Source of the DNA: Pyrinomonadaceae bacterium | GTDB lineage: Bacteria > Acidobacteriota > Blastocatellia > Pyrinomonadales > Pyrinomonadaceae | Direction: 5' to 3' | NCBI GenBank assembly: GCA_035633995.1 | Contig: DASQDV010000194.1 | Span: 1 to 25,979 of the forward strand | DNA length: 25,979 nt | In this document: piece after piece, positions 4,739 to 23,914 of the stretch | How the letters are laid out: each line of letters begins with the position of its first letter | Position numbering within the stretch: the stretch's first letter is position 1 | The notes under the pieces: generated by a model | Seen by the model: only the letters and a program-made list of their open reading frames with translations | Databases searched by the model: none | What the model was told of the DNA's origin: nothing | Made by a program: the position numbers and the translations under genes

Positions 4739-6397
4739 TCAAACGCCGCCACCGCCGCCCGTCAAAACTTCATTGCGCCCCTGAGCGACCTGCTGCGGCG
4801 GGCGCGCGGCCTCGCTCGCGGAACTGCTGCTCCGTCGTTTGCGGCGTGAGCGGCGGCCTTTGCTCGCGGCGGGGTCTTCGACGCGCCCGTCCAGGGTGGC
4901 GAGCGCGGCGAGCACTAAAAAGAGAAGCGCGTTCGAGGTCATGTGCAGGGAGAACTCGAAGAAGCTGTGAACGAGCACGGCGAAGCAACCGGCGAGCGCG
5001 CCCGCCGCCACGCCGCGACGGAATTTATCTTTTGAATTGAGGCGCGCAAAACCGTAACGAAAGAGCGCGTAGAGAAAGACGAGGCCGAGGAGGCCGCCGA
5101 TGATGCCCGCGTCGGCAAGTATCTGCAAGTAGTCGTTGTGCGCCTGCTCTAACCGGCTTGCGCCGTTTAAAACGTCGTAGCGCGTGTAGGCGACGCTGAA
5201 CGCGCCGAGTCCCGCGCCGATGAGCGGGTGGTGCTTGATCACTTCCCAAGTGCCCTGCCAGAACTGCACGCGCCCCGAAGTCGGGTCGTCTGCGTTCACC
5301 GTGCCGAACAGGCGCGACAAAGATTCCTCGCCGCCCAGATAGACCGACCCGGCGAGCAGCGCCACGACGAGCGCGAACCCGATGCCGACCCTCACCAGCG
5401 CCGCGCGCACGCGCGACTCGGCCGCCGCCTCCGTGTTCTCCTCCGCCTCGCGCTTATCTTTGCGCCTCACGAGTCCCGCGATGGCCGCGAGAAACAGGAC
5501 TTCCGCGCCGAGGCTGAGTATGCCGCCGCGCGACGAGGTCAGGATGAGCGCCAGCCCCATGATGGCGGCGGCGAAGATGTAGAGCAGGCGGCGCTCGACG
5601 GCGACCGCGCCCGAGACGAGCAGGCCGAGCGGCAGCGCGAGCGTCAGTTCCATGTAGGCGGCGAAGTGGTGGCGGTTGATGAAGGGGCCGAAGGGCATGG
5701 CGAATCTCGGCTGGCGAAACCAGTAAATCTGCGAAGGATTGGTGAAGTACTGGAACATGCCGAAGAGCGCGAGCAGGAAGCCGAAGATCGTGATGACGCG
5801 CACGAAGAGGCGCAGGCGCGCGGGGCTGTCCGTGAAGACGAGCGTGGCGCAAAAATAGACGATGAGCGACCCCAGTTGAATCAGGGCAAAGCGCGTCGAG
5901 TAAGGGTCGAGCGTCAGCGTGTTGACGGGCGCGTTCGTCAACCCGCCGACACCTGCTGCGCCGCCCGCCTCGCCCGCGCCGCCGAGCGGCAGCAACTGCA
6001 CCAGCCCGACGAGGAAGAGGCCGACGAGCGGCAACTGCAAGAGGTTGCGGCTGAGGCGCAGACGCCGCGTGCGCCATGCGTCGAGCGTCCAGAGGAGCAC
6101 GACGAGACACGCGCCCGCTTGAAAGAAGGCGAGCGCCCACGATTGCACCGTGCCGAAGGCGAGCGTCGAGAGTATCACGGCGAGGCACAGTATGAGGACG
6201 AGGAAGCGGCTGGCGAGCGTGTGCTGCTCCGGCGGCTGGCGCGTGCGCGCCGATGATGTCGCGGCGGCAGCGGGACGCCCCGGCTCCGGCAGCGGCGTCA
6301 CCGCCGCCGTCTCCGTCGTCGTAGCGCCCTTCGTCGTGTCAGGCGCGTCGCCCGGGTGCGCGAGCGGCGGCGGCGCGTTGGAGGTTGAAGTTGTCAT
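4739..6397 (-). CDS. O-antigen ligase (Wzy_C / WaaL-like) family membrane protein
   Basis: About 12 hydrophobic segments; motifs GPFINRHHFAAY, LTSSRGG, RVQFW...HPLIGAGLGAF and AHNDYLQILADAGIIG. The start overlaps the upstream gene by 59 nt, so it is somewhat uncertain. Confidence 0.85.
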   Translation of the reverse strand: MTTSTSNAPPPLAHPGDAPDTTKGATTTETAAVTPLPEPGRPAAAATSSARTRQPPEQHTLASRFLVLILCLAVILSTLAFGTVQSWALAFFQAGACLVVLLWTLDAWRTRRLRLSRNLLQLPLVGLFLVGLVQLLPLGGAGEAGGAAGVGGLTNAPVNTLTLDPYSTRFALIQLGSLIVYFCATLVFTDSPARLRLFVRVITIFGFLLALFGMFQYFTNPSQIYWFRQPRFAMPFGPFINRHHFAAYMELTLALPLGLLVSGAVAVERRLLYIFAAAIMGLALILTSSRGGILSLGAEVLFLAAIAGLVRRKDKREAEENTEAAAESRVRAALVRVGIGFALVVALLAGSVYLGGEESLSRLFGTVNADDPTSGRVQFWQGTWEVIKHHPLIGAGLGAFSVAYTRYDVLNGASRLEQAHNDYLQILADAGIIGGLLGLVFLYALFRYGFARLNSKDKFRRGVAAGALAGCFAVLVHSFFEFSLHMTSNALLFLVLAALATLDGRVEDPAASKGRRSRRKRRSSSSASEAARPPQQVAQGRNEVLTGGGGGV

Positions 6398-7664
6398 ACC
6401 AAACTTTACCGAAAATGGGACAGGTGGCAGCGGGACATTGCGGGCTGACGATGCGCAGCGTCACCGCGCGCGTCTCCGCGCCCGTCGTGAAATCGAGCGC
6501 GACGGCGCGCCAGTCCGCCGTGCCGATGGCGAGCGGCTCGGAGGCGGCGAGCACGCTCCCCGGCTGCGCGGCGTCCACCACCTCTGTGGCGAGCGTCGCC
6601 TCGCTTTTCAAATCTTCCGTCCGCACGTAATAGGCGATGCGGTAACGCGTCTGCGGTTCGACCGTCACGAGTTGCGAGATGTTGCGGAAGTCGAGCGTGC
6701 CCGGCGTGCTGAAGGCGAGGCGGAGGCTGCGCGCCCCCTCCTGCTGCACGCGCTCGTCGAGTCCCATCTGCACGCCCGCCACCGGCGTCACCTGCCACTC
6801 GAAGGGACTCTTGCCGGGCGGGCCGACCGCCGCCTCGAAACCGCCGTTCGTGAAACGCTCTCGCTCGGCGCTCGTCGGCGTCCCGTCCACGACCGCGAGT
6901 TCCCGGTGCATCGTCAACACTTCGTGAAAGCGTTTTGCTTCCAGCAAGCGCAGCAACAGTTTTTCGCCCGTCTCGCGTTGCGCCTTGCGCTCGCCCGCGT
7001 CGAACTTCTCCCACAACCGGAGCGCATCATCGAGCCGCTTCTGGTTGATCAGATAGTCCATCAACGCGCCGCGCGCGCCCGCCGACTCGCCCGCCGCCTT
7101 GAGCACCGACTGGATGTCGCCGTTGTAAAAACGCCACGACAGTTCGAGCATCTGCGGGCGGAACATTTGCGGGTTCGCGTCGCCCGCGCGCCGCAACTCT
7201 GCGAAAGCCTCTTCGATGCGCCCCTGCCTGAGCAGCAGGTTTCCGAGATACCAGCGCGGCGCCGGGTAATTCGGCGCGAGTTCGACGGCGCGGCGCAGAG
7301 CCTCTTCGCCGCCGCGCGCGTCGCCGATCAGCCCGCGCACGCGCCCCAACTCCATGAAGAGCCGGAAGTCGTTCGGCGACAGGCGCGCCGCCTCTTCGTA
7401 ACGCCGCGCCGCCTCCGGCAACTCTTCGGGCAGAAAACTCCGCTCGCGCAAACGCGCAATTGTGAAATGCGCCTGCGGGTCGTCGGGCGCGAGCCGCGCC
7501 GCCGCCTGCGCCGCCTGAATGTCGGGCAGCCATTCCGCCATCGTGTTCGCGATGCACCAGCGCACCCCGTACCACGTGCCGACGGCGGCGACCAGCAGCG
7601 GCACGATCAACAACACGCGCGCCCAAGACGCGCGAAGCTCCACTGTTGTGATCTGATCTTTCAT
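6339..7664 (-). CDS. TPR protein with N-terminal membrane anchor and C-terminal carbohydrate-binding-like domain
   Basis: One N-terminal TM segment (VLLIVPLLVAAVGTWYGV), TPR-like repeats (YEEAARLSPND, LRRAVELAPNY) and a CBM4/9-like beta domain (FTNGGFE...VEPQTRYRIAYYVRT...VWYDNFNL). Confidence 0.75.
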   Translation of the reverse strand: MKDQITTVELRASWARVLLIVPLLVAAVGTWYGVRWCIANTMAEWLPDIQAAQAAARLAPDDPQAHFTIARLRERSFLPEELPEAARRYEEAARLSPNDFRLFMELGRVRGLIGDARGGEEALRRAVELAPNYPAPRWYLGNLLLRQGRIEEAFAELRRAGDANPQMFRPQMLELSWRFYNGDIQSVLKAAGESAGARGALMDYLINQKRLDDALRLWEKFDAGERKAQRETGEKLLLRLLEAKRFHEVLTMHRELAVVDGTPTSAERERFTNGGFEAAVGPPGKSPFEWQVTPVAGVQMGLDERVQQEGARSLRLAFSTPGTLDFRNISQLVTVEPQTRYRIAYYVRTEDLKSEATLATEVVDAAQPGSVLAASEPLAIGTADWRAVALDFTTGAETRAVTLRIVSPQCPAATCPIFGKVWYDNFNLQRAAAARAPGRRA

Positions 7665-7666
7665 TT

Positions 7667-7784
7667 AGTCAGTTGTCAGTTGTCCGCAGCCAGTTATTTT
7701 ATCTCTTACGCAAGCTGAGATTTTAACTTTAGACCGTCGCTCGTGAATCACAAACAACGAACAACTGACTAGGGACACCGGACA
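7667..7784. repeat. 118-bp intergenic inverted-repeat element with heptamer-repeat arms (copy A)
   Basis: Left arm AGTCAGT TGTCAGT TGTCCGC AGCCAGT; right arm ACAAACA ACGAACA ACTGACT AGGGACA CCGGACA. Homologous to 12064-12181 (50 of 62 identical over the right part). Confidence 0.8.
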
Positions 7785-7789
7785 GCTTC

Positions 7790-9592
7790 TCAGTTCAACT
7801 GGTCAATCTGTATGCGCATCCGTTTGAGCGTGACCTGCGCGGCCTCGCAGTCCTGGAGGATGGTGGCGAGCCGCTCTTCGGTGATCTGCGTGCTTGAGAT
7901 CAGGACTTCGGCGACGCGCTGCTCCTCGCAGATGTGGCGCAGCGAGCCGTTGCCGCCGAACACGCGCAGGCCGTGTATGACTTTCCCTTTTTTGAGCGGG
8001 TCGTCGTCCACGAAGCCGACGGGCGTGAGTTGCAGTTCGCGGTTGTTGAGCACCTCGCGCAAGAGCAGTTCGCCGCCGTCGCCCGCGCCGTAGATCAGTA
8101 CGCGCCGCGTGCCGCGCGCGTCGGCGACGGGCAGCGCGTGGCGAAACAGGCGAAAGGCGAAACGGCTGCCCGCGAGCATCATAAAGAGCATCATCGTGTC
8201 GAGCACGAAGACGGCGCGCGACAACCCCTCGAAGCGAAACGCGACGAGGAGCGCCAATACGCTCCCGATTGCGCCGAGCACGACGGCCTTCGCAAACACC
8301 ACGACGCCGTCAATGCTGATGTAACGCCACAACCCGCGATAGACGCCCGCCGCCAGAAACGCGAACATCTTGACGCAGACCAGCACCGGCACCGTGCGCA
8401 GAAACAGATTCCACGCGCCCTTGTCCGACATCGGGCCGAAAAGCAGGGTGTACGCGCTGTAGTAGGACAGGATGATCAGCACGACATCGAGCATTACCTC
8501 GAAGATGCGCCGCTTGTAAGAGAGGTCTACGAAGAAGGCGACGAGCGGTTTCTCGCGCGCGCGCTGCACCTCTTCCTCTTCGTAAACTTTGACCCCCGCC
8601 AGATAGACGCCGAGCAGCGCGAGCACGACCGTGAAGCCGACGATGGCGACGATGCTCACGTCCAGCCTCACGCGGCTGATGAGCAGCGCGAGCACGCCCG
8701 ACAGCCCCGCGAACCCGTAGAGCATCCAGACGGCGCGGCGCTCCGTCATGCCGAGCGCGACGAGGCGATGTGAGGTGTGGTCGCGCCCGCCCTGCGAGGC
8801 GCTGCGCCCGGAGAGTTTGCGCAGGATGGTCACGAATGTCGTGTCGAAGATCGGGATCAGGAGAATCAGGACGGGCACGGCGAGCACGATCATAAACGAG
8901 CGCGAGCGCGCGCCCGACGCGCTCAGCAAGGCCGCGCTCGCCAGGAAGAAGCCGATGAACATCGAGCCGCAGTCGCCCATGAAAATCGTCGCGGGGTTGG
9001 AGTTGTAGGCGAGGAAGCCGACGAGCGCGGCGCAGAAGACGGCGAGCATCAGAGCCTCCGCCGGGCGACCGTTGACGAGGAAACTCGCGGCGAGGAAAGC
9101 GGCGGCGATGGCGGCGATGCCGGCGGCGAGGCCGTCCATGTTGTCGAGCAAATTGAGCGCGTTCGTGATGCCGACGAGCCAGAAGATCGTGATCGCCATG
9201 TTGAGCGAGGGCGAACTGCTCCACGGCAGAGCCAGCCCGTAATAGACGATCAAACTCGCGCCCATCACCTGCCCGATCAACTTCTGGTAGGGCTTGACGT
9301 GAACGATGTCGTCAACCAAACCGACGAGGAACAGAAACCCGCTCGCCGCAAGCACGACCCACCCGTAAGGCCAGTTCGGCATCTGCCGGACGAAGACGAG
9401 GTACGTGACGGCGACGGTCAGGAACACGGCCAGCCCGCCCAGCATCGCCGTCGGCTTGCTGTGCCAGCGATCCGGCTTCGGCTGCGCCACCATGCCCCAA
9501 TGGCGCGCCAGCGAGCGCACCACCGGCGTCAACACCAGCGCGAGTGCAAACGACACAATGACGGGAAGGAGATTTAAACTACCGGCGTACAT
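7790..9592 (-). CDS. WecA/TagO/MraY-like undecaprenyl-phosphate sugar-1-phosphate transferase fused to a C-terminal TM + Rossmann (CoA_binding_3-like) region
   Basis: PKPDRWH...LGG, NALNLLDNMDGL, IFMGDCGS and RDHTSHRL are PNPT motifs; the C-terminus has RRVLIYGAGDGG and PVGFVDDDPLKKG. Confidence 0.85.
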   Translation of the reverse strand: MYAGSLNLLPVIVSFALALVLTPVVRSLARHWGMVAQPKPDRWHSKPTAMLGGLAVFLTVAVTYLVFVRQMPNWPYGWVVLAASGFLFLVGLVDDIVHVKPYQKLIGQVMGASLIVYYGLALPWSSSPSLNMAITIFWLVGITNALNLLDNMDGLAAGIAAIAAAFLAASFLVNGRPAEALMLAVFCAALVGFLAYNSNPATIFMGDCGSMFIGFFLASAALLSASGARSRSFMIVLAVPVLILLIPIFDTTFVTILRKLSGRSASQGGRDHTSHRLVALGMTERRAVWMLYGFAGLSGVLALLISRVRLDVSIVAIVGFTVVLALLGVYLAGVKVYEEEEVQRAREKPLVAFFVDLSYKRRIFEVMLDVVLIILSYYSAYTLLFGPMSDKGAWNLFLRTVPVLVCVKMFAFLAAGVYRGLWRYISIDGVVVFAKAVVLGAIGSVLALLVAFRFEGLSRAVFVLDTMMLFMMLAGSRFAFRLFRHALPVADARGTRRVLIYGAGDGGELLLREVLNNRELQLTPVGFVDDDPLKKGKVIHGLRVFGGNGSLRHICEEQRVAEVLISSTQITEERLATILQDCEAAQVTLKRMRIQIDQLN

Positions 9593-9660
9593 ATCTAACT
9601 GTCTGTTGGTTTCGGTTTGAAGTCGCCTGAAAAGCTATTCGATGTAGAGTGAGAAATCAA

Positions 9661-9730
9661 GTGAGCAGTAAGAGAATGAGCAGTGAGCAGTGAAAAACAG
9701 AACTGCTTACTGCTCATCGCTCACTGCTCT
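9661..9730. repeat. Inverted repeat with TGAGCAG/CTGCTCA heptamer arms
   Basis: GAGCAGTAAGAGAATGAGCAGTGAGCAG (9663-9690) pairs imperfectly with CTGCTTA CTGCTCA TCGCTCA CTGCTCT (9703-9730); 12-nt loop; 5 nt from the epimerase stop codon. Confidence 0.8.
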
Positions 9731-9735
9731 CTCTC

Positions 9736-10698
9736 TTACTGCCCGCTCTGGTGCTCGATCACTTTTTGCAGGATGCCGTCGAGTTTCTCCGTCGGTTTGA
9801 ACCCGGTGAGCGCGCTCACCTTCGTGATGTCGGGAACGCGGCGCGGCATGTCCTCGAAGCCCTCTTCATAGGCTTCGTCGTAGGGCATGAAGATGATCTC
9901 GGAGTCGGATTTCGTCAACTCCTTCACGCGCTCGGCCACTTCGAGAATGGAAACTTCTTCGTTCGAGCCGATATTGAAGACTTGCCCGACCGCTTCGGGA
10001 GCGTCCATCAACTTCATGAGCGCCCCCACCACGTCGCCCACGTAGCCGAAGCAGCGCGTCTGTTTGCCGTTGCCGTAAACCGTGATCGGGCGACCGGCGA
10101 GCGCCTGTCGCACAAAGGTCGGGATGACCATGCCGTACTGCCCGGTCTGGCGCGGCCCGACCGTGTTGAAGAGGCGCACCACGACCGTCGGCAGTTTCCG
10201 CTCGCGCCAGTAGGCGAGCGCGAGAAATTCGTCAATCGCTTTCGAGCAGGCGTAAGACCAGCGCCCCTTCGTGGTCGCGCCCATCACGAGGTTGCCGTCT
10301 TCGCGGAAAGGCACTTCGGTCGAGAGGCCGTAGACTTCCGAAGTCGAGGCGACGAGCACCTTCTTCTTCTTCTTGTTGGCGAGATTCAGTATGACTTCCG
10401 TGCCGCGCACGTTCGTCTCGATGGTTCTGACCGGGCTTTCCACGATCAGTTTCACGCCGACCGCCGCCGCCAGGTGAAAGACCACGTCGCACTGGTCAAC
10501 GAGTTCGGCGCAGACCGGCACGTTATGCACGCTCTCAATCGTGTAATGAAAACGCGGGTGCTGCTTCAGGTGCGCGATGTTCTCGATGCTGCCCGTCGAG
10601 AGATCGTCGATGACGTAAACTTCGTCGCCGCGTTCCAGATAAGCGTCCGACAGATGCGACCCGATGAAGCCCGCCCCGCCCGTGATTAAAACTCTCAA
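9736..10698 (-). CDS. NAD-dependent NDP-sugar epimerase/dehydratase (extended SDR)
   Basis: ITGGAGFIG, HLAAAVG, ASTSEVYG, YACSK (YxxxK), RLFNTVGPRQ. TTG start with GGAGA SD. Confidence 0.9.
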   Translation of the reverse strand: MRVLITGGAGFIGSHLSDAYLERGDEVYVIDDLSTGSIENIAHLKQHPRFHYTIESVHNVPVCAELVDQCDVVFHLAAAVGVKLIVESPVRTIETNVRGTEVILNLANKKKKKVLVASTSEVYGLSTEVPFREDGNLVMGATTKGRWSYACSKAIDEFLALAYWRERKLPTVVVRLFNTVGPRQTGQYGMVIPTFVRQALAGRPITVYGNGKQTRCFGYVGDVVGALMKLMDAPEAVGQVFNIGSNEEVSILEVAERVKELTKSDSEIIFMPYDEAYEEGFEDMPRRVPDITKVSALTGFKPTEKLDGILQKVIEHQSGQ

Positions 10699-10701
10699 AA
10701 A

Positions 10702-12063
10702 TTAATCTCCTTTCACACGCGCCGACTCAATGGCGGGCACGCCCCCCTGCTTTGCCCCGACCACCGCCGCCACGCGCGGCGACGGCAATAGTTCGCTGTA
10801 AAGATTCAGCACGTCTTTCACCAGACGCTCCTTCGAATAATGCTCCACGACAAACGCGCGCCCGCGCTCGCCGAGCGTGCGCCGCAAGTTTTCGTCCGCC
10901 GCGAGCCGCCGCAAGGCTTCGCAAAAAGCCTCCGCATCATTCGTCCGCACGCGCACGCCGCGCTCGCAGACCGCGTAAGCTGCTGCTTCTGCTGCCGTCG
11001 CCGCCGCACCGGGCTGGCCGACGAGATCAACCACGCCGCCGACGGCGGTTGCCACGACCGGGCGCGCGTTCGCCATCGCCTCGATGAGCGTCAGGGGCGT
11101 GCCCTCGTTCAGAGATGAGAGCGCGACGATGTCGAGCGCGGCATAAAAATTTTCCGGGTCGTCGCGCATTCCCGTAAACGTCACATGCGGCGCGATGCCG
11201 AGCGTGCGCGCGTGCGCTTCGAGTTCGCCGCGCAAGTGGCCGTCGCCGACGACGACGAAGCGCACGCCGCTCGCCCCCGTTGTCTCGCCGTCTGATTCGA
11301 GCGCCGCGTCGCTGCCCTCGCCGTCGTGCCGTTTCAGGTAGAGCGCGGCGGCTTCGAGGAACAACTTGTGGTTCTTGATCTCCGTCAGACGCCCGACGAT
11401 GCCGATGAGCAACTCGCCCGCACGCGCGCCCAACTCCGTGCGCGCCGCCGCGCGCCGCTCGCGCCAACCTGCGAATGCCTGAACGTCCAGCCCCAGCGGA
11501 ATCACTTTGAACTGGCGAGCGCGCCCGACGCCGAACTGCTCGTGTATCTCGCGGTACTGCTGCTGGCTGATCACGACGATCCTGTCCGTCGCCGCGCGCG
11601 CGAGGAGTTTTTCGATGGTCAAAAACACCTGCGTCTTCAAGCGCCCGTAGTAACTATGAAAAATGTGCCCGTGATACGTGTGCACGAAGCGACAGGCGCG
11701 CGGTCGCCCCGCGAGCGCCGACGGCGTCAGCCAGCGATAGAGTAGCCCAGCGACGCGCCCGACCGTTCCCGCCTTCGCCGTGTGCGTGTGCACGATGTCC
11801 GGCTGCAAACGCCGGAACAGGCGGTACAGTTTCCAGATCGTCACGGCGTCCTTCGGCGACACCTCGCGGCTCATCTGGGGCAGAATGATCGGGTGGACGC
11901 CCTGTTCCGCCGCGAAGTAGCTCATGTCGTCTTCGCCCGGCGGCACCACCCCGGCGATCAACTCCGACTCGATCCCGAAGCGCCGCGTCGCCGCCGTCAG
12001 CCAGGCCACATGCTTCGCCGGGCCGCCCACGTTCAAACGCGCGATGATGCGAACAACCTTCAT
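10702..12063 (-). CDS. Glycosyltransferase family 4 (GT-B)
   Basis: MKVVRIIARLNVGGPA, VHTHTAKAG, HTYHGH, GRLTEIKNH, SLNEGTPLTLIEAMA (EX7E). Confidence 0.9.
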   Translation of the reverse strand: MKVVRIIARLNVGGPAKHVAWLTAATRRFGIESELIAGVVPPGEDDMSYFAAEQGVHPIILPQMSREVSPKDAVTIWKLYRLFRRLQPDIVHTHTAKAGTVGRVAGLLYRWLTPSALAGRPRACRFVHTYHGHIFHSYYGRLKTQVFLTIEKLLARAATDRIVVISQQQYREIHEQFGVGRARQFKVIPLGLDVQAFAGWRERRAAARTELGARAGELLIGIVGRLTEIKNHKLFLEAAALYLKRHDGEGSDAALESDGETTGASGVRFVVVGDGHLRGELEAHARTLGIAPHVTFTGMRDDPENFYAALDIVALSSLNEGTPLTLIEAMANARPVVATAVGGVVDLVGQPGAAATAAEAAAYAVCERGVRVRTNDAEAFCEALRRLAADENLRRTLGERGRAFVVEHYSKERLVKDVLNLYSELLPSPRVAAVVGAKQGGVPAIESARVKGD

Positions 12064-12181
12064 AGTCCGTCGTCCGTAGCCAGTTGTCAGTTGTTTTCGT
12101 CCGGCCTAACCTGAGAGCCTTATCTTTAGCTCGTCGCTCATGAGCCACGAACAACGGACAACTGACGATGGACAACGGACG
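12064..12181. repeat. 118-bp intergenic inverted-repeat element with heptamer-repeat arms (copy C)
   Basis: Five heptamers per arm in register: AGTCCGT CGTCCGT AGCCAGT TGTCAGT TGTTTTC versus ACGAACA ACGGACA ACTGACG ATGGACA ACGGACG. The left arm abuts the GT4 ATG with no gap. Confidence 0.85.
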
Positions 12182-12186
12182 GCCTT

Positions 12187-12738
12187 TCAATCTTCCATTG
12201 TATAAATCGTCGCCGGATCGTCTTCGTGCCTGATCTCGTCTATTTCGGCGCGTTTGCCTTCGCCCATGTAGAGGCTGTTGGGGCAGTTGATGACGATGCC
12301 TGCCACGCTCCCGACGTTGCGATAAGCGTGGACGACGCCTTTCGGGACGAGCACCGCTTTCGGGTTGTCCGCGCCGACGTAGAGCGTCATCACCTGGTTG
12401 TAAGTTTCCGAATCCCGCCGGTTGTCCCACAAACGGAGCTTGAAATTCGAGGGGCCGATGAAGACGAAGAAGTCCGCCTGATCGACGTGCTCGTGCGGGC
12501 CGCGCTGCACATGCGGCTCGGTCGAGGAGATGTAAGACATGACCGGGAAATATTCCGCCTCCATCTCGTCGTGGCGGAACAACTCGGCGAGCCAGCCGCG
12601 CTCGTCCACGAACTTGCGCACGTCGCGGACGACCACATCGCGAATCTTCCCGCGCTTAAACTGCGGCGACGCCGTTTCCTGCTGCGGCTGCTGCTCCTCC
12701 TCCTCCTTCGGCGTCTGGCGCTTAGGCGTGGATTGCAT
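12187..12738 (-). CDS. dTDP-4-dehydrorhamnose 3,5-epimerase family protein (RmlC-like cupin)
   Basis: DERGWLAELFR, RGPHEH, VPKGVVHAY; overlaps the nucleotidyltransferase gene by 17 nt. Confidence 0.75.
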   Translation of the reverse strand: MQSTPKRQTPKEEEEQQPQQETASPQFKRGKIRDVVVRDVRKFVDERGWLAELFRHDEMEAEYFPVMSYISSTEPHVQRGPHEHVDQADFFVFIGPSNFKLRLWDNRRDSETYNQVMTLYVGADNPKAVLVPKGVVHAYRNVGSVAGIVINCPNSLYMGEGKRAEIDEIRHEDDPATIYTMED

Positions 12739-13486
12739 TAACGGCCTCCTTCCGGTTCTCCATCTTGTTGGCGCCCGTCTCGGCCACGAGCGTCCCGGCG
12801 TGCAGCAAACTCTCGAACGTGCCCGCGTCAGTCCACCAGCCTTCGAGTTCGTTCCAGGTCATCTCGCCGCGCTCGATGTAGGCGTTGTTCACGTCTGTGA
12901 TCTCAAGTTCGCCGCGCTCCGAAGGCTTGAGCGTCTTGATGATCTCGAACACTTCGGCGTCGTACATGTAGACGCCGATCACGGCGTAGTCGGACTTCGG
13001 CTGTTTCGGCTTCTCCTCGATGCGCACGACGCGCGACCCCTTGAGTTCGGGCACGCCGAAACGCTGCGGGTCGGAGACCTGCTTCAGGAGTATCTTTGCG
13101 CCGCCGCCCTGATGCCGGTAGGCGCGCACCGCCTGACAGATGTTGCCCTCGATGATGTTGTCGCCGAGGACGATGCAGACGGGTTCGCCGTCGGCGAAGT
13201 CTTCGCACAGAGAGAGGGCAGCCGCGATGCCGCCCTCGCCCTCCTGATACGTGTAGTTGAGGTGCTTGAGGCCGAACGCTCGCCCGTTCTTCAACAGCTT
13301 GAGAAAATCCCCGGCGGAGTTTCCGCCCGTCACGATCATGATGTCCCTGATCCCGGCGTTCACCAAAGTCTGAATCGGGTAATAAACCATCGGCTGATTA
13401 AAAACCGGCAGCAAGTGCTTATTCGTCACCGCCGTCAACGGCATCAGACGCGAGCCGAGCCCGCCAGCTAACACGATACCTTTCAC
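12722..13486 (-). CDS. rfbA: Sugar-1-phosphate nucleotidyltransferase (RmlA/RfbA/SpsI-like)
   Basis: KGIVLAGGLGSRLMPLT, NKHLLPV, VLGDNI, EEKPKQPKSDYAV, SERGELEITDVN, WTDAGTFESL. GTG start with GGAGGA SD. Confidence 0.85.
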   Translation of the reverse strand: MKGIVLAGGLGSRLMPLTAVTNKHLLPVFNQPMVYYPIQTLVNAGIRDIMIVTGGNSAGDFLKLLKNGRAFGLKHLNYTYQEGEGGIAAALSLCEDFADGEPVCIVLGDNIIEGNICQAVRAYRHQGGGAKILLKQVSDPQRFGVPELKGSRVVRIEEKPKQPKSDYAVIGVYMYDAEVFEIIKTLKPSERGELEITDVNNAYIERGEMTWNELEGWWTDAGTFESLLHAGTLVAETGANKMENRKEAVNAIHA

Positions 13487-13511
13487 AATATCTGTCCTCC
13501 GAATAAAAGTT

Positions 13512-13629
13512 CGTCCATTGTCCGTAGTCAGTTGTCAGTCGCATGTGGCTGACGAGCGTTAAGCTGAAAATTAAACCTTCATGCCGGGGCAGCACGAAAC
13601 AACTGACCACTGACTACGGACAACTGACA
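13512..13629. repeat. 118-bp intergenic inverted-repeat element with heptamer-repeat arms (copy D)
   Basis: TGTCCGT AGTCAGT TGTCAGT (13519-13539) is 20 of 21 complementary to ACTGACC ACTGACT ACGGACA (13602-13622). The arm ends 1 nt from the asnB stop; the internal AAGCTGA motif is shared with copy A. Confidence 0.85.
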
Positions 13630-13630
13630 A

Positions 13631-15517
13631 TCAATCAATAAACCGCTGAAACCATAACTCAAGCATGAGCAACGTCCATAACTGGTGCGCGTAGTCGCGC
13701 TCGCCGCGCGTGTGGAGTTCGACCATGCGCGCGACGGCTTCGGGGCGGAAGAAGCCGCGCCCGAGCGCCTTCTCCGAGAGCAGCGTCTCGCGCAGGAACG
13801 CGTTCATCTCGCCGCGCAGCCAGTGGCCGATGGGGACGCCGAAGCCCATCTTGCGCCGCTGCAAATTCTCCGCCGGGAGCAGTTTCGCCAGCACGCGCTT
13901 CAAGAGATATTTCGTCGTCAAGCCCCGCAGCTTCAGGTTCTCCGGCAAACTCGCGGCAAACTCTATCACGTGATGATCGAGAAACGGAGAGCGCGCTTCG
14001 AGCGAAACGGCCATGCTCGCAATGTCAACTTTGACGAGCAGGTCGTTCGGCAGGTAAGTCATCGTATCGGCCAGGAGCGACGCGTCCACCAGCCCCGCGC
14101 CGTTGGCGTGCGCAAACCAGGGCGCGACGAAATCGGCGGCTTCGTGTCCCTGCATCTCGCGCCGGAAATCCGCCGTGTAGAGGTCGTCTTTCGCCGATGC
14201 GTCGAGCACGCTGATCCAGCGCATGTAACGCTCGACGGTCGGGAGCGAGGCGGCGTCGAGAAAGCGTTTGAGGTCGCGCGCGCGCGAGCGCCGCGTCTCC
14301 GAAGTCGGGTAAAGCGCAACCGCATTTTTGATCAAGCCTTCGCGCAGCAGGCCGGGGACGCTGCGGTACTTGCCCGCGAGTTTCATCGCGGCGTAGCGTT
14401 CGTAACCGGCGAAGCACTCGTCGCCGCCGTCGCCGTTCAGGGCGACGGTGACATGGCGGCGCGTCTCGCGCGAGACATAGTAAGTCGGGATCGCGCTGGA
14501 GTCCGCGTAAGGCTCGCCGTAATGTTCGACGAGCGTGGGCAGCACTTCCATCGCGTCCGGGCGCACGATGAACTCGTGGTGCTCCGCGCCGACGTGTTCG
14601 GCGACGCGGCGCGCGTGGTGCAATTCGCTGAAATCCTGTTCCTCGAAACCGATGGAGAAAGTTTTGACGGGCGTGCTCGACACTTCGCTCATCAGCGCGA
14701 CGACCGCCGACGAATCCACGCCTCCCGACAAAAACGCGCCGAGCGGCACTTCCGACATCAGGCGCACGCGCACGGCCTCGCGCAAAATCTCTACGGCGCG
14801 CTCGCCCGCCTCCGCCTCGCTCATACGCGTCTTCTTGGAAAAGTCCGGCTGCCAGTAACGCTCGATCTTAATCTCGCCGTCGCGCGGCGTGTAGCGCAGA
14901 GTGTGGCCGGGTTCGAGTTTGCGTATGTCTCGATAGACGGTGAGCGGCGCGGGCACGCACATGAAGGTGAGGTAGTGGTGGATGGCCTCGCGGTCGATCT
15001 CGCGGCTGACATCAGGGTGCTGAAGGAGCGCGGCGAACTCCGAGCCGAAGACGAATTGATCGGCGAGTCGCGCGTAGAGCAGCGGCTTTTTGCCCACGCG
15101 GTCGCGCGCTAAAAACAGCTCACCGCGCCGCTCGTCCCAGATGGCGAAGGCGAACATGCCGCGCAGGTGCTTGGGACACTCCGTGCCGTACTGTTCGTAG
15201 GCTTCGAGGACGACTTCCGTATCGCAGTCGGTGTGAAACACGCGACCGAGTTCTTCCAGACGCTTGCGGACTTCCTTGTAGTTGTAGATTTCGCCGTTGA
15301 AGACGATCCAGCTTGTGCGCTGTGCGTTGTGCATCGGCTGCTGGCCGCTCTTGAGGTCGATGATGGCGAGGCGGCGCATGGCGAGGCCGACCGACTCGTG
15401 CAGATAACTGCCCTCCTCGTCCGGCCCGCGATGGCGGATCGCCTCGTTCATACGCGCGAGCACGCCCGCGTCCACCGCGCGCCCCTCGCGCCGCACCATG
15501 CCTGCGATTCCACACAT
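13631..15517 (-). CDS. asnB: Asparagine synthase (glutamine-hydrolysing) family amidotransferase, glycan-locus type
   Basis: N-terminal MCGIAG, HRGPD, RLAIIDL, FNGEIYN, RDRVGKKPL, FLSGGVDSS, LNGDGGDE, KVDIASMA, EARSPFLD. Confidence 0.92.
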   Translation of the reverse strand: MCGIAGMVRREGRAVDAGVLARMNEAIRHRGPDEEGSYLHESVGLAMRRLAIIDLKSGQQPMHNAQRTSWIVFNGEIYNYKEVRKRLEELGRVFHTDCDTEVVLEAYEQYGTECPKHLRGMFAFAIWDERRGELFLARDRVGKKPLLYARLADQFVFGSEFAALLQHPDVSREIDREAIHHYLTFMCVPAPLTVYRDIRKLEPGHTLRYTPRDGEIKIERYWQPDFSKKTRMSEAEAGERAVEILREAVRVRLMSEVPLGAFLSGGVDSSAVVALMSEVSSTPVKTFSIGFEEQDFSELHHARRVAEHVGAEHHEFIVRPDAMEVLPTLVEHYGEPYADSSAIPTYYVSRETRRHVTVALNGDGGDECFAGYERYAAMKLAGKYRSVPGLLREGLIKNAVALYPTSETRRSRARDLKRFLDAASLPTVERYMRWISVLDASAKDDLYTADFRREMQGHEAADFVAPWFAHANGAGLVDASLLADTMTYLPNDLLVKVDIASMAVSLEARSPFLDHHVIEFAASLPENLKLRGLTTKYLLKRVLAKLLPAENLQRRKMGFGVPIGHWLRGEMNAFLRETLLSEKALGRGFFRPEAVARMVELHTRGERDYAHQLWTLLMLELWFQRFID

Positions 15518-16942
15518 TTAAGAATCTATCCTCTCGGAAAGCCCGCGCGCGATCTCAGCCCACTCGCTGTCGCGTTCGCGCCGCCACTGCTCGTAACGCC
15601 TGCGCGCCAGACGCTCCTGCGCCGCGCGCATCAACGCTTCCTTCTTCATCCGCGCCAGACGCTCACGCTCCTCGCTGCGCTCCTTCAAAAGCACGGCGCC
15701 GACCGACACGAAGATAAAATAGAAGACCAAAAGCTGCGACCGCTGCCGGTACGCCGTCCCCACGTTCCCCTGAAAGATCGAGTACGCCAATGTCAGCATC
15801 GTCGTGAAGATCAAAATCGGCAACGCCTGCCGCATACGGTAGCGCAGCGTGAACCAGATGCCCATCACGAGCAGCGGGAAGGATGCCCACCAGATGAACA
15901 TCTCTGGCAAGGTGATGCTCTGCCGCAGATTAGCCAACTGCCACGGAAATGGCGCGAACAACAGATACACCATGCCGAGCGGGATGGTTTGGAGCGCGCC
16001 CGAAGCGGTTGAAACGTCCACATCGCGCCCGAAGCCGGATTCGGTGGTCGCCAAATCGGCGCGGCTTCGCTGCACGCGTTCGAGGCTGCCGAACTCTTCA
16101 AACTGCTGGGTCGCGCGGCGCAGCACGCCGAAGTAAGTCATCGTCAACCCGATGGCGACGAGGACGACGAACTGCCGCATCAGAGATTGACTCGTGACGC
16201 GCCGCATCCCGATCATGAACGCCCCGCCCGCCGCCGCAATCGCCATGTAAAAGATGTAGAAGCGCAAGCTCAACAACCCGAGCAGCGCGCCGACGAGGAC
16301 GAGAAAAAATTTCGCGCTGAGTTGCTCGCCGAGCTTGAGCGTCGCCAGCATCGCGGCGACCAGACAGAAGATGATCGGCCCGTCTTTTAACCCCTGCGAC
16401 GACCACAGGACGAGTGAGGGGAAGAAGGCCACGAACAGCGCCGTCAAACGCGAAACGCGCGTGTTCTCAAACATGTGCTGCGCGCAGAGGTAAGCCAGCG
16501 GCGCGGTCGCCGCGCCGATCACCCCGTTGACGTACTGCACTGCGAGCAGGTTGCGCCCGATAGCGGCGTAGATGCCGCCGATCAGGTAGGCCATGCCCCA
16601 GCCGACCGACTCGTAACCCTGTAGCGGATTCTTGTAGAACGGGTCGCCCTGCCACGACTTCAACATCCACGTCCCGAGTTGGTCGTAGGCCGTCGCGTCG
16701 CCGCCGAAGAAGTCCTGTAGTTCGAAACCGAAGATGAGCGTGCCGACGAGCATCCTGACGAGCAGCCCGGCGATGAAAATATAGAACAGGAACGCGCGAT
16801 CAATTTCGATGCGACGCACGGCGAAGCCTGCGACGAGCGCGGCGACGAGGCAGACGAGCACCGCCGGCGCGCCGTAGGTCGGCACAAACACGGCGATGAC
16901 CAAACACATCGCCAATGCCATCACGGTAAGAACTGCGTTCAT
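15518..16942 (-). CDS. Polytopic membrane protein, GT-C/PMT-like or Wzy-like (paralog 2)
   Basis: About 11-12 TM segments; FFGGDATAYD, SQGLKDG, QGNVGTAYRQRSQL; strong similarity to 17006-18424. Confidence 0.75.
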   Translation of the reverse strand: MNAVLTVMALAMCLVIAVFVPTYGAPAVLVCLVAALVAGFAVRRIEIDRAFLFYIFIAGLLVRMLVGTLIFGFELQDFFGGDATAYDQLGTWMLKSWQGDPFYKNPLQGYESVGWGMAYLIGGIYAAIGRNLLAVQYVNGVIGAATAPLAYLCAQHMFENTRVSRLTALFVAFFPSLVLWSSQGLKDGPIIFCLVAAMLATLKLGEQLSAKFFLVLVGALLGLLSLRFYIFYMAIAAAGGAFMIGMRRVTSQSLMRQFVVLVAIGLTMTYFGVLRRATQQFEEFGSLERVQRSRADLATTESGFGRDVDVSTASGALQTIPLGMVYLLFAPFPWQLANLRQSITLPEMFIWWASFPLLVMGIWFTLRYRMRQALPILIFTTMLTLAYSIFQGNVGTAYRQRSQLLVFYFIFVSVGAVLLKERSEERERLARMKKEALMRAAQERLARRRYEQWRRERDSEWAEIARGLSERIDS

Positions 16943-17005: not shown

Positions 17006-18424
17006 CTAGATCGGCTCGCGGTTCACGAAAGCCTCCGCCGCCGAAGCCGTGTGCGCTCCCGGCGCTCTGCGCGCGCGTGTGGCGCCCTCCCTGATCGCGC
17101 GGCGCTGCTCCTCCAACGCCATAGACACCTTGCGCTGCCTGTCCTCGCGCCGCTCCTTCAAGATGACGGCTCCAACCGACACGAAGATAAAATAGAAGAC
17201 CAGAAGCTGCGACCGCTGCCGGTACGCCGTCCCCACGTTCCCCTGAAAGATCGAGTATGCCAATGTCAGCATCGTCGTGAAGATCAAAATCGGCAACGCC
17301 GGTCTCATGCGATACTTTAACGTAAACCAGATGCCCATCACGAGCAGCGGGAAGGATGCCCACCAGATGAACATCTCCGGCAGCGTGATGCTCTGCCGCA
17401 AATTAGCCAACTGCCACGGAAACGGCGCGAACAACAAATACACCATGCCGAGCGGAATCGCCTGCAACGCGCCTTCGGTCGTCGAAACGTCAACGTCGCG
17501 CCCGAAGCCCGACTCGTAGCTCGCCAGATCGGAGCGGCTCCGCTGCACGCGTTCCAGATTGGCGTAAGTTTCAAACTGTGCGGTCGCCGTGCGCAGCACG
17601 CCCAGATATGTCATCGAAAGGCCGAGCGCGACGACGATAGCCATCTGCCTGATCACGCTGCCGGGGCCGACGGGCGGGCGAACGCCGATGAGCAGCGCGC
17701 CGCCCGCCGCCGCAATCGCCATGTAAAAGACGTAGAAGCGCAAACTCAGCAACCCGAACAGGGCGAAGACGAGCATCGCAAAAAATTTGACGCTCAAACC
17801 CTCGCTCAACTTGAGCGTCGCCAGCATCGCGGCCACGAGCAAAAAGACGATGGGCCCGTCCTTGAGCACCTGCGACGACCACAGGACGAGCGAGGGGAAG
17901 AAGGCCACGAGCACCGCCGTCAAACGCGAAACGCGCTTGTTCTCAAACATGTGCTGCGCACAAAGGTAAGCCAGCGGCGCGGTCGCCGCGCCGATCACCC
18001 CGTTGACATACTGCACCGCGAGCGAATTGCGCCCGACGAGCGAATAAACGACGGCCACGACATAGCCCAATCCCCACCCGCCGCTTGAGTAGCGCTCCGT
18101 CACGTTCTCGAATTCGGCGTTGCCCTGCCAACCTTCGATGATCCACAAGCCGAGTTGGTCGTAGCCCAGCGAATCGCCGCCGAAGAAGGCTTGCAGACGA
18201 AGCATGTAGATTCCCGTCGCCACGAGCACGCGCACGAACAGCGCGGCGGCGAAGAGTTGCAACATAAACTCTTTGTCGTGCCCTTCGAGAGTCAGGTTGA
18301 AGGCGACGAGCGCAATGCCCGCGCTGCTGATCAGGATGAGCACCGCCGGCGCGCCGACGCCGGGAAACATCATGATGATGCCGATGCAGAAAATAAACGC
18401 TAGGAGAACTAGAAATCCGTTCAT
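17006..18424 (-). CDS. Polytopic membrane protein, GT-C/PMT-like or Wzy-like (paralog 1)
   Basis: About 11-12 TM segments; FFGGDSLGYD, SQVLKDG, QGNVGTAYRQRSQL; tandem duplicate of 15518-16942. Confidence 0.75.
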   Translation of the reverse strand: MNGFLVLLAFIFCIGIIMMFPGVGAPAVLILISSAGIALVAFNLTLEGHDKEFMLQLFAAALFVRVLVATGIYMLRLQAFFGGDSLGYDQLGLWIIEGWQGNAEFENVTERYSSGGWGLGYVVAVVYSLVGRNSLAVQYVNGVIGAATAPLAYLCAQHMFENKRVSRLTAVLVAFFPSLVLWSSQVLKDGPIVFLLVAAMLATLKLSEGLSVKFFAMLVFALFGLLSLRFYVFYMAIAAAGGALLIGVRPPVGPGSVIRQMAIVVALGLSMTYLGVLRTATAQFETYANLERVQRSRSDLASYESGFGRDVDVSTTEGALQAIPLGMVYLLFAPFPWQLANLRQSITLPEMFIWWASFPLLVMGIWFTLKYRMRPALPILIFTTMLTLAYSIFQGNVGTAYRQRSQLLVFYFIFVSVGAVILKERREDRQRKVSMALEEQRRAIREGATRARRAPGAHTASAAEAFVNREPI

Positions 18425-18457
18425 GGCTTTTTACTGTAGCGGGGGCTTCTACAACTT

Positions 18458-18602
18458 AGGGGACAGGGGAGAGGGACAAGGGGAAAGGCGAAAGAGGGAT
18501 AAGATTTGTCGAGCGCGACTTTTATCGAGCGTGGCTTGTATCGAATGTGCCCGGGCGCGCGTGCGTCGCTTCCTTTTCCCTTTAGCCTTTCCCCCTTCCC
18601 CT
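18458..18602. repeat. Inverted repeat with purine-rich AGGGGAA / TTCCCCT heptamer arms
   Basis: AGGGGAC AGGGGAG AGGGACA AGGGGAA AGGCGAA (18458-18492) versus TTTCCCT TTAGCCT TTCCCCC TTCCCCT (18575-18602); 6 nt from the carbamoyltransferase stop. Confidence 0.75.
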
Positions 18603-18608
18603 GACGTT

Positions 18609-20318
18609 TTACTGTTTTCGCAACACCAGATGGTTCTCCAACACGAGCGCGTCGAAGTTCGCGCCCTGAAAAGTTTTGATGGCGTCCGAGGGGCGGCAGA
18701 CGATGGGTTCCTGAATGTTGAAAGAGGTGTTCAGGAGCATCGGGCAGCCGGTCAGTCGCTCAAACTCGTCGATCAAATTCCAGTAGCGCGGGTTCGTCCG
18801 GCGGCTCACGGTCTGCGGCCTGGCCGTGCCGTCTATGTGGACGACCGAGGGGAAGCGCGCGCGCTGCTCCTCTGTGACGTGCAAGACCGTCACCATGAAC
18901 GGATCGTAGTGCGGGCGACCGAAAATCTCCTCGCTCACTTCCTCCTTCATCGAAGGCGCGAGCGGGCGAAACCACTCGCGCAGTTTCACCTTCTTGTTCA
19001 ACAACTCGCGCATGTCGTAGCGGCGCGGGTCGGCGATGAACGAGCGGTTGCCGAGCGCGCGCGGCCCAAACTCCATGCGCCCCTGAAACCAGCCGATGAT
19101 CGCGCCGTCCGCAATCATCTGCGCCACGCGCGGCAGCATCTCCGAATCTTCGAGCGTCTCGAACTTCAAGCCTGCGCTGCTGAGTTCGGCGGCGCACTCT
19201 GCGGACGTGAAGCCGGGGCCGTAGTAGGCATGTTCCATCCTGCGCGTGCGCGGCTGCCGGAGGATCGTGTGGTGCACCATGAGCGCCGCGCCGAGCGAGC
19301 AGCCCGCGTCGCCCGCCGCCGGTTGCACGTAATAGTTTTTAAACGGCGACTCGGTCATGATCCGCCCGTTCATCACGGAGTTGAAGGCGACGCCCCCGGC
19401 CATGCACAAATTTTCTTCGCCCGTCATCTCGTGCAGGCCTTTGATGAGGTGGAGCGCGGTGTCTTCCAGAACCTTCTGCGCGCTGGCGGCGATGTTCCAG
19501 TGGCGCTCGGTCAAATCCTCGTCGGGCTGGCGCGGCGGCCCAAGCGCACGGCTGATCTCGTCGCCGAACTGGTAATGCTTGGCGAGGTGGTGATCGAGCA
19601 CGCGGATGTTGAAATTAAAATCGTAGTTGCCGTTGACGGAGAGCACGCGCTCGCGGAAGAAGTCGTAGTATACGGGTTTGCCGTAAGCCGCGAGGCCCAT
19701 CACCTTCCACTCGTCGCCGCCGAACATGTCGAAGCCGATGAAGTTCGTCACCGCCGAATAGAACTGGCCGAGCGAGTGCGGCAGCTTGATGCGCTTCAAG
19801 ACCTCTATGCGCTGGCCGTCGCTGCGTGAGAAAAGCGTCGTCGTGTCTTCGCCCGTCCCGTCCCAGGTCAGGATGGCGCTCGTGTCGAAGCCGGAGACGA
19901 AGAAGGAACTGGCCGCGTGGCACTGGTGATGTTCGAGGAAGTGGAAACGAAAATCGCTCGGCCCGAAATGTTTGCGTATAAGTTTCGGGTGGCGCAACAT
20001 GCCGAGGTAGCTCTGGCTTACCTGCGCCACGCCGCGATCCGCGCGCGCCTTGAACATATCGCGCGAGATGAGTCCCGACTTCAACGCCTGCAAAGCCTTG
20101 TGGCGCAAAATCCAGGGCTTCCAGTAGAGGCCGATGTGCTCTACGTCCTTGATGCCGATGCCCGCTTCTTCGAGGCAGTACTGCATCGCGTGGTAGGGGA
20201 AGCCGCTGTGATGTTTACGGCGTGAAAAGCGTTCCTCTTCCGCCGCCGCGACAATTTCGCCGTCGCGCAGGAGCGTCGCCGCAGAATCGCCCAGAGTTGT
20301 TAGTCCAAGAATATACAT
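18609..20318 (-). CDS. Carbamoyltransferase (NodU/CmcH family)
   Basis: AAAEEERFSRRKH, EHHQCHAASSF, WDGTGE, SLGQFY, MGLAAYG, GGVAFNSVMNG, GRMEFGPRALGNRS, REWFRPLAPS, LLNTSFN. Confidence 0.92.
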   Translation of the reverse strand: MYILGLTTLGDSAATLLRDGEIVAAAEEERFSRRKHHSGFPYHAMQYCLEEAGIGIKDVEHIGLYWKPWILRHKALQALKSGLISRDMFKARADRGVAQVSQSYLGMLRHPKLIRKHFGPSDFRFHFLEHHQCHAASSFFVSGFDTSAILTWDGTGEDTTTLFSRSDGQRIEVLKRIKLPHSLGQFYSAVTNFIGFDMFGGDEWKVMGLAAYGKPVYYDFFRERVLSVNGNYDFNFNIRVLDHHLAKHYQFGDEISRALGPPRQPDEDLTERHWNIAASAQKVLEDTALHLIKGLHEMTGEENLCMAGGVAFNSVMNGRIMTESPFKNYYVQPAAGDAGCSLGAALMVHHTILRQPRTRRMEHAYYGPGFTSAECAAELSSAGLKFETLEDSEMLPRVAQMIADGAIIGWFQGRMEFGPRALGNRSFIADPRRYDMRELLNKKVKLREWFRPLAPSMKEEVSEEIFGRPHYDPFMVTVLHVTEEQRARFPSVVHIDGTARPQTVSRRTNPRYWNLIDEFERLTGCPMLLNTSFNIQEPIVCRPSDAIKTFQGANFDALVLENHLVLRKQ

Positions 20319-23721: not shown

Positions 23722-23766
23722 CTTAAACTACGAGGTGATCCTTGAACCTGCGAACAGGCACTCAAG

Positions 23767-23858
23767 CTTTCCGCGCCTTAAAGTTTTCCTCACTTCGCGC
23801 CTTTGTGTGGAAAACCGTTTTACGCAAAGGCGCAAAGTTAAAACGTAAGGCGCGAAGT
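23767..23858. repeat. Inverted repeat built from four AAGGCGCRAAG-type units (two reverse, two forward)
   Basis: CTTTCCGCGCCTTA and ACTTCGCGCCTTTGTGT on the left; ACGCAAAGGCGCAAAGT and ACGTAAGGCGCGAAGT on the right; symmetry centre near 23816. Confidence 0.75.
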
Positions 23859-23914
23859 AGTTCTGAATCCCACTCAAAAATATCCTTCTTCAGGAAAGCG
23901 TCAATAATGCACAA

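Follow-up and report, generated by a model that had tools for sequence, protein, structure and literature searches.

Heptamer-armed palindromic cassettes at gene junctions of Pyrinomonadaceae: three gene-less hairpins in a polysaccharide cluster and their counterparts with a PF05635 gene

What are the three palindromes that separate successive genes in a polysaccharide-biosynthesis cluster of a soil acidobacterium? The cluster occupies a stretch of 25,979 nt (contig DASQDV010000194.1 of assembly GCA_035633995.1), hereafter called the window, of a Pyrinomonadaceae metagenome-assembled genome (MAG; genome G000, the host genome) of 4.73 Mb in 912 contigs, with 62% G+C and 82% complete. The palindromes, named copies A (positions 7667 to 7784), C (12064 to 12181) and D (13512 to 13629), had been noticed in the bare sequence, and the original prediction described them as a fixed-length, non-autonomous dispersed element or a structured-RNA cassette. 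The results presented here make it very likely that A, C and D are gene-less members, of the GTCMGT dialect, of an abundant class of heptamer-armed palindromic intergenic cassettes in Pyrinomonadaceae. Each such cassette has on either side an array of about four 7-nt units, the two arrays pointing towards each other, and between them there may be no more than a few bases, or else a conserved core or a gene of family PF05635.

At all three loci phased NGTCMGT heptamers face ACKGACN heptamers across a middle of about 60 nt (58-62 nt, with no open reading frame (ORF) in any of the three). On the plus strand, the arms of copy A, which are degenerate, are located at about 7667-7697 and 7756-7784 and its core at about 7698-7755. 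Those of copy C are located at 12065-12095 and 12150-12180 and are 84% complementary, with the core at about 12093-12152, and those of copy D at about 13512-13540 and 13597-13629, with the core at about 13542-13600. Copies A and C can be aligned without gaps with 80% identity over 70 nt (7723-7792 versus 12120-12189), and the sense strands of A, C and D are predicted to fold with -44.1, -60.3 and -58.9 kcal/mol (z = -4.3, -6.4 and -8.3), respectively. The heptamer arms, the alignment and these folds together establish that the three loci are real. In agreement with what had been noted before, the upstream gene, which is on the minus strand, has its stop codon at a distance of 5 (A), 5 (C) and 1 nt (D) from the unit. 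The cores of A and C are in the forward sense of the family on the transcribed minus strand, to which both copies were assigned (nhmmer E = 3.8e-12 and 7.8e-14, respectively). Copy D turned out to be inverted: it is assigned to the plus strand, and over 134 nt it is complementary to C at 70% of the positions, a conclusion with which the core alignments agree. An internal AASCTGA motif, which had been proposed as a shared feature, is indeed present at all three places. It does not occupy a homologous position however, because D is inverted and the motif there is situated in the box that matches the CTTTAG box of A and C.

The tandem arrays detected in the host genome by Tandem Repeats Finder (TRF) include 2116 with a period of 7, 414 with a period of 5 and 468 with a period of 8. 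Neighbouring period-7 arrays form 365 inverted pairs versus only 5 direct pairs, and the former number is a lower bound, i.e. the genome contains at least 365 heptamer-armed hairpins. The arms come in different unit sequences, or dialects, among which are GTCMGT, GTTTCAR, GAACGATG, AAATCGT, AGTGACR, GGGGAAA, CAGAATW, CAGATGT and AGAGGTY, and there is one arm arrangement per dialect among the examples listed. The GTCMGT dialect is represented by 92 paired copies, all 92 of which have the arrangement GTCMGT...ACKGAC, so that GTCMGT is 5′ on both strands; the opposite arrangement was not found. A search of the host genome gave 307 matches to the triple-heptamer pattern and none to its reversed control, and hence the heptamer arrangement is far above chance. 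The arms are 29-30 nt long on average, and the median length of the main stem is 30 bp. In register the two arms are 88% complementary, and a displacement by one or two units lowers this to 79%, which is only a modest excess over the heptamer consensus; the TRF-defined lengths of paired arms are weakly correlated (r = 0.12).

In the GTCMGT dialect there is in addition a conserved core, without structure of its own, that measures about 43 or about 60 nt. The middles are homologous: in most of them the core is the shorter one (about 43 nt; consensus TGCATGTGG..ATCAC..AGTTGCTAAAGAT..TTGAACA), others have longer versions, and A, C and D belong to a subfamily of 17 copies with a core of about 60 nt. 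The 92 paired copies span 85-190 nt, with a median near 110, and a fixed length, as first proposed, is therefore not a property of the family. The value of 118 bp roughly holds within the 17-copy subfamily, the intact copies of which measure 117-119 nt: four heptamers, the core of about 60 nt and four more heptamers add up to this length, which is thus typical of the subfamily without being a rule. All features of the known heptamer-armed inverted repeats of the Xanthomonas, short tandemly repeated repetitive (STRR) and long simple sequence repeat (LSSR) types are present here, namely tandem 7-nt arms, convergent pairs, about four units per array and an intergenic position.

The distribution of these elements was determined in two ways. 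A 16-mer spanning the joint between arm and core gave repeated matches, among species-representative genomes, only in Pyrinomonadaceae MAGs (Acidobacteriota); the remaining matches were single and at chance level. The arm pattern was present in all 19 congeners, in four of five other genera of the family and in several other families of the class, with 2 to about 1100 occurrences per genome overall and 2-684 per genome in congeners. One genome of the same class (G027, about 8.4 Mb) contains, besides hairpins, long direct GTCAGTA/GTCAGTG arrays of at least 16-19 units (e.g. C1:23026-23157 and C4:5-115), and these are closer to classical STRR-type arrays than to paired hairpins.

The gene cluster in the window is conserved at 81-89% identity in 19 congeners, and four of its junctions were extracted from them using the flanking coding sequences as anchors. 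Junction A is occupied in the congeners by GTCMGT, GCCGTCA or AGAGGTC hairpins, and junction C by GTCMGT, AGCCGTC, AGCTGTT, CAGAATW or GAGCAGT hairpins; an orthologue of copy C itself is present in four of them (G002, G005, G018 and G006). Junction D contains GTCMGT (with a long or a short core), AGCTGTT or AGCYRTC hairpins, an empty spacer of 25-27 nt (G010 and G008) or an AATCGTR-armed cassette carrying a PF05635 gene (G011 and G014). The core of D is identical to those of the close relatives G002 and G018 at 51/62 and 49/63 positions, respectively, only after reverse complementing, whereas the core of C has kept its orientation. In G009 both arms at junction D have become TTTCAGT with the core unchanged. 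Moreover, a soil DNA run (X1; positions 13486-13633) contains a co-occurring relative in which a 29-nt spacer replaces D, at a depth of 26.7 versus about 46 for the filled form. These changes, in which elements are replaced or lost, loops are inverted within their arms and both arms alter together, are events at the level of DNA. One and the same junction can thus be followed across the genus as a gene-less hairpin, as the flipped form, in another dialect, with a PF05635 gene or empty, which provides a clean comparative series. The part of the original interpretation that speaks of a non-autonomous dispersed element is supported: at least 92 paired copies are present in the host genome and tens to hundreds of pattern matches in most congeners, dispersed copies have non-repetitive cores in common, and orthologous sites are empty, replaced or flipped.

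Family PF05635 corresponds to S23p, the 23S-rRNA intervening-sequence protein, an Avd-like four-helix bundle; Avd is the accessory protein of diversity-generating retroelements. The host genome contains two PF05635 genes, each located at a gene junction between inverted heptamer arms, of the CAGATGT dialect in one case (C438:11473-11899) and of the CAGAATW dialect in the other (C441:4843-5268). Such genes were found in 19 of the 20 genomes of the genus. Inverted heptamer arms (at least 18/21 complementary) flank 47 of the 51 PF05635 genes examined, versus 6 of 51 in a mismatched-locus control. An accessory gene flanked by like arms, the search for which had been suggested as a check, therefore exists, and in three cassettes of 460-467 nt (G018:C98, G012:C40 and G006:C444) the arms are of the GTCMGT dialect itself. 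The junction of these three cassettes is occupied in 16 other congeners, the host included, by gene-less hairpins of three other dialects, and the upstream stop codon there is often formed by the first arm heptamer. Every gene-carrying cassette that was inspected points in the direction of its neighbours. The resemblance of A, C and D to the gene-carrying cassettes lies in the arms and in the type of site occupied. Clusters of PF05635 proteins follow dialect, and one clade often combines related dialects, but not strictly so. Strict co-evolution of PF05635 and dialect was considered and rejected: cassettes with AGTGACR and GTGACAG arms belong to separate clades, and most clusters are no more than sets of orthologues.

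A supply of stop codons by arms was also seen at G000:C6:640-782 and the orthologous junctions (L192-L206), upstream of a gene whose product starts MIIGICGG and which we take to be possibly a uridine kinase gene. The first arm heptamer gives the upstream stop codon, TGA in AGTGAC or CGTGAAT and TAA in CGTAAAT, and as a consequence the C-terminus of the upstream protein varies between species according to arm dialect.

With respect to genes as called by a codon-usage gene caller written for the host genome, 303 elements have a called neighbour on both sides, and all but three of these (300) are intergenic. The elements occupy 16.7% of the gaps of at least 60 nt between tandem genes, 14.8% of those between convergent genes and 5.8% of those between divergent genes. 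For tandem pairs, the element starts at a median of 4 nt past the stop codon and ends at a median of 12 nt ahead of the next start, and when there is room to spare in the gap it is closer to the stop codon in 51 cases versus 27. GTCMGT cores are co-oriented with transcription in 54 cases versus 18 (p = 2.6e-5). For annotation this means that about one sixth of the larger gaps between co-directional genes in this genome is such an element, and that arms can both provide the upstream stop codon and abut start codons that are without a Shine-Dalgarno sequence.

On balance, we consider the cassettes to be probably selfish, palindromic elements resembling intervening sequences (IVS). According to this explanation they would be DNA that is copied or replaced at the 3′ ends of genes, and they would be tolerated, or perhaps targeted, just behind stop codons. 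The arms would be homogenised by slippage of heptamers and by correction of one arm against the other, and recombination between the arms, or a template switch from one to the other, might flip the loops. In the transcript of an operon, the arm stem of about 30 bp would be a putative RNase III substrate by analogy with the 28-bp IVS stem of Coxiella; a cut there would divide the message between cistrons or trim it. The gene-carrying cassettes are laid out like the Coxiella IVS and the host genome encodes an RNase III domain, which together suggest that the stems of A, C and D may be such substrates. This RNase III step, proposed by analogy, is conceivable, though we would stop short of calling it probable.

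Several results weigh against this explanation. No enzyme or mechanism for movement of the cassettes was identified. Near-identical copies are absent, the identity of a core to its nearest neighbour being 81% (median) and 95% at most, and comparison of the filled and empty forms of junction D did not reveal a target-site duplication. Some hairpin is kept at each junction in almost every congener, and this persistence could equally reflect host selection for a hairpin at these places. Three nhmmer core models run against the three GTCMGT-armed cassettes gave nothing above shuffled decoys, and gene-less cores compared with the insides of all 51 gene-carrying cassettes gave nothing below E = 0.2. 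Neither was a GTCMGT-armed PF05635 gene found in the 82%-complete host genome, which has two PF05635 genes and many dialects. Finally, the RNA data consist only of low-depth metatranscriptome contigs. The cores were also considered as deletion remnants of gene-carrying cassettes. This idea was abandoned when the similarity seen by eye failed the nhmmer tests, and in view of the lack of core similarity descent of A, C and D from gene-carrying cassettes cannot be claimed.

Could the elements instead be RNA hairpins that are selected by the host and are not mobile DNA at all? A strong stem just past the stop codon might serve as a stabiliser of the 3′ end, a partial terminator or a device that couples translation by drawing the upstream stop towards the downstream start, and any dialect would do. 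This would account for hairpins being retained at every junction by nearly all congeners although the sequence has turned over completely, and also for the short distance to the stop codon, the depletion between divergent genes and the fact that A and C abut starts without a Shine-Dalgarno sequence. Besides, the sense strand is 9-14 kcal/mol more stable than the antisense strand for each of A, C and D; in the case of the degenerate copy A the antisense fold is not significant (z = -1.7). This asymmetry is not found elsewhere: genome-wide the sense and antisense strands have -44.9 versus -44.2 kcal/mol and 627 versus 613 G-U pairs, and within the family the sense strand folds better in 44 cases versus 28 (p = 0.12). 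Selection at the RNA level through G-U asymmetry was accordingly rejected as a candidate, energies and G-U counts being equal genome-wide and in the family. A scan for intrinsic terminators detected none at the main stems, which are not followed by a U-tract, and yielded 10 sites versus 7.5 expected in shuffled sequences; canonical promoters at the elements were at background level. Among the public RNA data, which are too sparse to reveal transcript ends, only two soil metatranscriptomes contain about 5% of the sampled words, and a 179-nt metatranscriptome contig that spans D (13475-13653) extends only 24 nt beyond it on one side and may derive from DNA, so that it speaks neither for processing nor against it. 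Since empty junctions are tolerated as well, and since non-repetitive cores common to unrelated sites and the PF05635 cargo are left unexplained, we regard selection of hairpins by the host as unlikely. A more specific version, in which the core is a functional RNA or protein-binding motif displayed on the arm stem, corresponds to the structured-RNA cassette proposed earlier. It would account for the conservation of the core sequence in dispersed copies and across species and for its co-orientation with transcription. However, a permissive Rfam scan of the whole window gave only chance-level matches (E = 0.47-0.87) far below gathering scores, RNAalifold found neither a consensus structure nor covariation in 54 aligned cores, and the family shows no bias in folding between the strands. 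Moreover, the core of D is inverted with respect to its orthologues, i.e. core orientation differs between sister species, and unrelated loops replace the core at the same junctions. A structured RNA beyond the arm stem is thus very unlikely indeed.

The palindromes might also be moved in trans by a Y1 transposase (RAYT/TnpA), as repetitive extragenic palindromic (REP) sequences and their paired forms (REPINs) or derivatives of IS200/IS605, or they might be classical MITEs (miniature transposable elements with inverted repeats). Like REPINs they are palindromic, intergenic and high in copy number and do not cause target duplication, and Y1 transposase genes are present in 13 of the 20 congeners. 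Their presence does not track the number of hairpins: no Y1_Tnp (PF01797) match was obtained in the 82%-complete host genome, nor in G002 and G005 with 501 and 631 pattern matches, respectively, and no heptamer hairpin is present within 1.5 kb of the four Y1 genes inspected in congeners. The arms are moreover tandem heptamers and not a single palindrome with a GTAG or CGTC tag, and a MITE should have left a target-site duplication at D and have an autonomous IS relative with the same terminal repeats, whereas the only gene found between arms is PF05635, which does not encode a transposase. This origin is consequently very unlikely. Growth of simple-sequence repeats in place by polymerase slippage, without copying between sites, appears to be extremely unlikely. 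Heptanucleotides are, it is true, the commonest long simple-sequence repeats in many bacteria, and they have been ascribed to slippage (Mrazek 2007, as summarised in PMC4679880); and arms can change in concert at one site around the same core, as they did at junction D of G009. Yet dozens of unrelated sites have non-repetitive cores of 43-60 nt in common with 75-95% identity, there are 365 inverted pairs for 5 direct ones, and each dialect has a single arm arrangement. The common cores already contradict slippage as the origin of the elements, and it would survive only as a mechanism by which arms grow and shrink.

The probable selfish, IVS-like nature of the cassettes can be compared with that of known systems. 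Correia elements and REPs influence how mRNAs are processed and how stable they are, and Correia and enterobacterial repetitive intergenic consensus (ERIC) elements had been brought forward as a parallel. The comparison stands as a loose analogy only. The elements studied here resemble REP/REPIN-RAYT, ERIC and Correia elements in being small, abundant intergenic palindromes that can enter transcripts. They differ in lacking a tagged single palindrome, a TA duplication and an associated Y1 transposase, and their arms are tandem heptamers in many interchangeable dialects. Closer parallels are found in Xanthomonas, with its convergent heptamer arrays, and in 23S rRNA, with the IVSs that carry S23p. 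Xanthomonas campestris and X. axonopodis contain intergenic tandem heptamers of sequence GGGAATC, mostly with four units per array and with no function assigned to them (Rehm et al. 2015, PMC4692102), and in 70-75 cases per genome two arrays on opposite strands face each other so that a stem-loop is possible (PMC4692102). Intergenic tandem heptamers in convergent pairs are thus a feature of both systems. In the acidobacterial elements studied here, however, the unit sequence is different, there is no G-quadruplex formation, almost all arrays are paired and one dialect has a conserved core of 43-60 nt; neither a link to PF05635 nor turnover at junctions is part of PMC4692102.

The IVS in the 23S rRNA of Coxiella burnetii is a selfish element of 428-444 nt whose terminal stem measures 28 bp and whose loop contains an S23p ORF; RNase III cleaves it within the stem (PMC4990558). 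The gene-carrying cassettes of the genus studied here have the same layout: they measure about 430-470 nt, their terminal inverted repeats form a stem of about 28 bp, and the loop contains a PF05635 ORF. Such a stem is also found in A, C and D, and the PF05635 ORF only in the related cassettes elsewhere. In contrast to the IVSs, which reside in helix 25 or 45 of 23S rRNA, all copies examined are located between protein-coding genes, and cleavage by RNase III, demonstrated for the IVS, is for stems of the A/C/D type a prediction by analogy.

A third parallel is provided by the direct repeats of the heptamer TAACTGA in marine Beggiatoaceae, cyanobacteria and Bacteroidetes, which lie a few bases upstream of starts without a Shine-Dalgarno sequence (MacGregor 2015, PMC4679880); among 170 sets a single indirect case was reported (PMC4679880). 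The unit is near-identical to the CAACTGA in the 3′ arm here, and the starts at A and C likewise are without a Shine-Dalgarno sequence, but here each array is matched by an inverted one, with which it pairs into a long stem. Heptanucleotide simple-sequence repeats in general are over-represented in bacteria according to Mrazek (2007), as summarised in PMC4679880. Descriptions of heptanucleotide repeats, such as the cyanobacterial STRR, GGGAATC of Xanthomonas and TAACTGA of Beggiatoaceae, go back decades, those of cyanobacteria being known since 1990, but no function or origin proposed for them has found acceptance. Our literature search yielded no paper on such repeats in Acidobacteriota, nor one on their association with PF05635. 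Convergent heptamer arrays are hence already known, and what is documented here is the link to PF05635 and the turnover at orthologous junctions.

The elements are of moderate interest in themselves, and are useful mainly as an unusually clear comparative series of a class that has known but unexplained relatives. The PF05635 series ties heptamer repeats to a defined protein family and to rRNA intervening sequences processed by RNase III. It is tempting to speculate that heptamer-armed hairpins and the forms with PF05635 are one system, "intervening sequences of messenger RNA", which would spread behind stop codons and whose stems of about 28 bp would be cut by RNase III, thereby splitting operon transcripts. 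The PF05635 protein would bind the arms and maintain or copy the cassettes, and the gene-less copies would be its satellites. We consider this unified scheme rather doubtful. If true, it would explain the heptamer repeats of cyanobacteria, Xanthomonas, Beggiatoaceae and many other phyla.

Nearly all called genes of the window, including every gene flanking A, C and D, are on the minus strand. Copy A is located between a gene for a Glycos_transf_4 plus CoA_binding_3 protein (7790..9592) on its upstream side and a gene for a TPR plus CBM_4_9 protein (6339..7664), the ATG of which is 2 nt from the arm, on its downstream side. Copy C separates the gene for a dTDP-sugar isomerase-like protein (12187..12738) from that of a GT4-family glycosyltransferase (Pfam Glycos_transf_1; 10702..12063), whose ATG abuts the arm (0 nt). 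Start codons 7662-7664 of the TPR gene and 12061-12063 of the GT4 gene, neither of which is preceded by a Shine-Dalgarno sequence, are thus situated at the stem bases of A and C, an arrangement that would be compatible with juxtaposition of stop and start via the stem. Upstream of D there is an asparagine synthase gene (13631..15517), and downstream a nucleotidyl transferase gene (12722..13486) that starts with GTG and has a GGAGG ribosome-binding site between D and this GTG.

Hairpins of other dialects, their strand unspecified, are present at further junctions of the cluster. A GAGCAGT hairpin (9660..9747) is located at the neighbouring junction, B, directly 3′ of the stop codon of an epimerase gene. 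In the region that separates it from the start of the Glycos_transf_4 gene (9593-9660), about 50 nt (GCCTGAAAAGCTATTCGATG...GAGAAATCAAG) are conserved in the congeners recovered there, and this stretch stays constant while the neighbouring hairpin switches dialect; it may be a promoter or a 5′ untranslated region element. Another junction contains a hairpin of a G-rich dialect (18445..18610), in which GGGGAVA faces TTTCCCC and which gave only a chance-level, miRNA-like Rfam match. A different palindrome, with ACTTCGCGCCTT... facing ...AAGGCGCGAAGT and a heptamer make-up that is not obvious, is present in the intergenic region 23740-23900 upstream of a YvcK/CofD-GT2 fusion gene. Finally, 15518-16942 and 17006-18424 are tandem paralogous membrane-protein genes, which have blocks of 300 nt in common with 85% identity.

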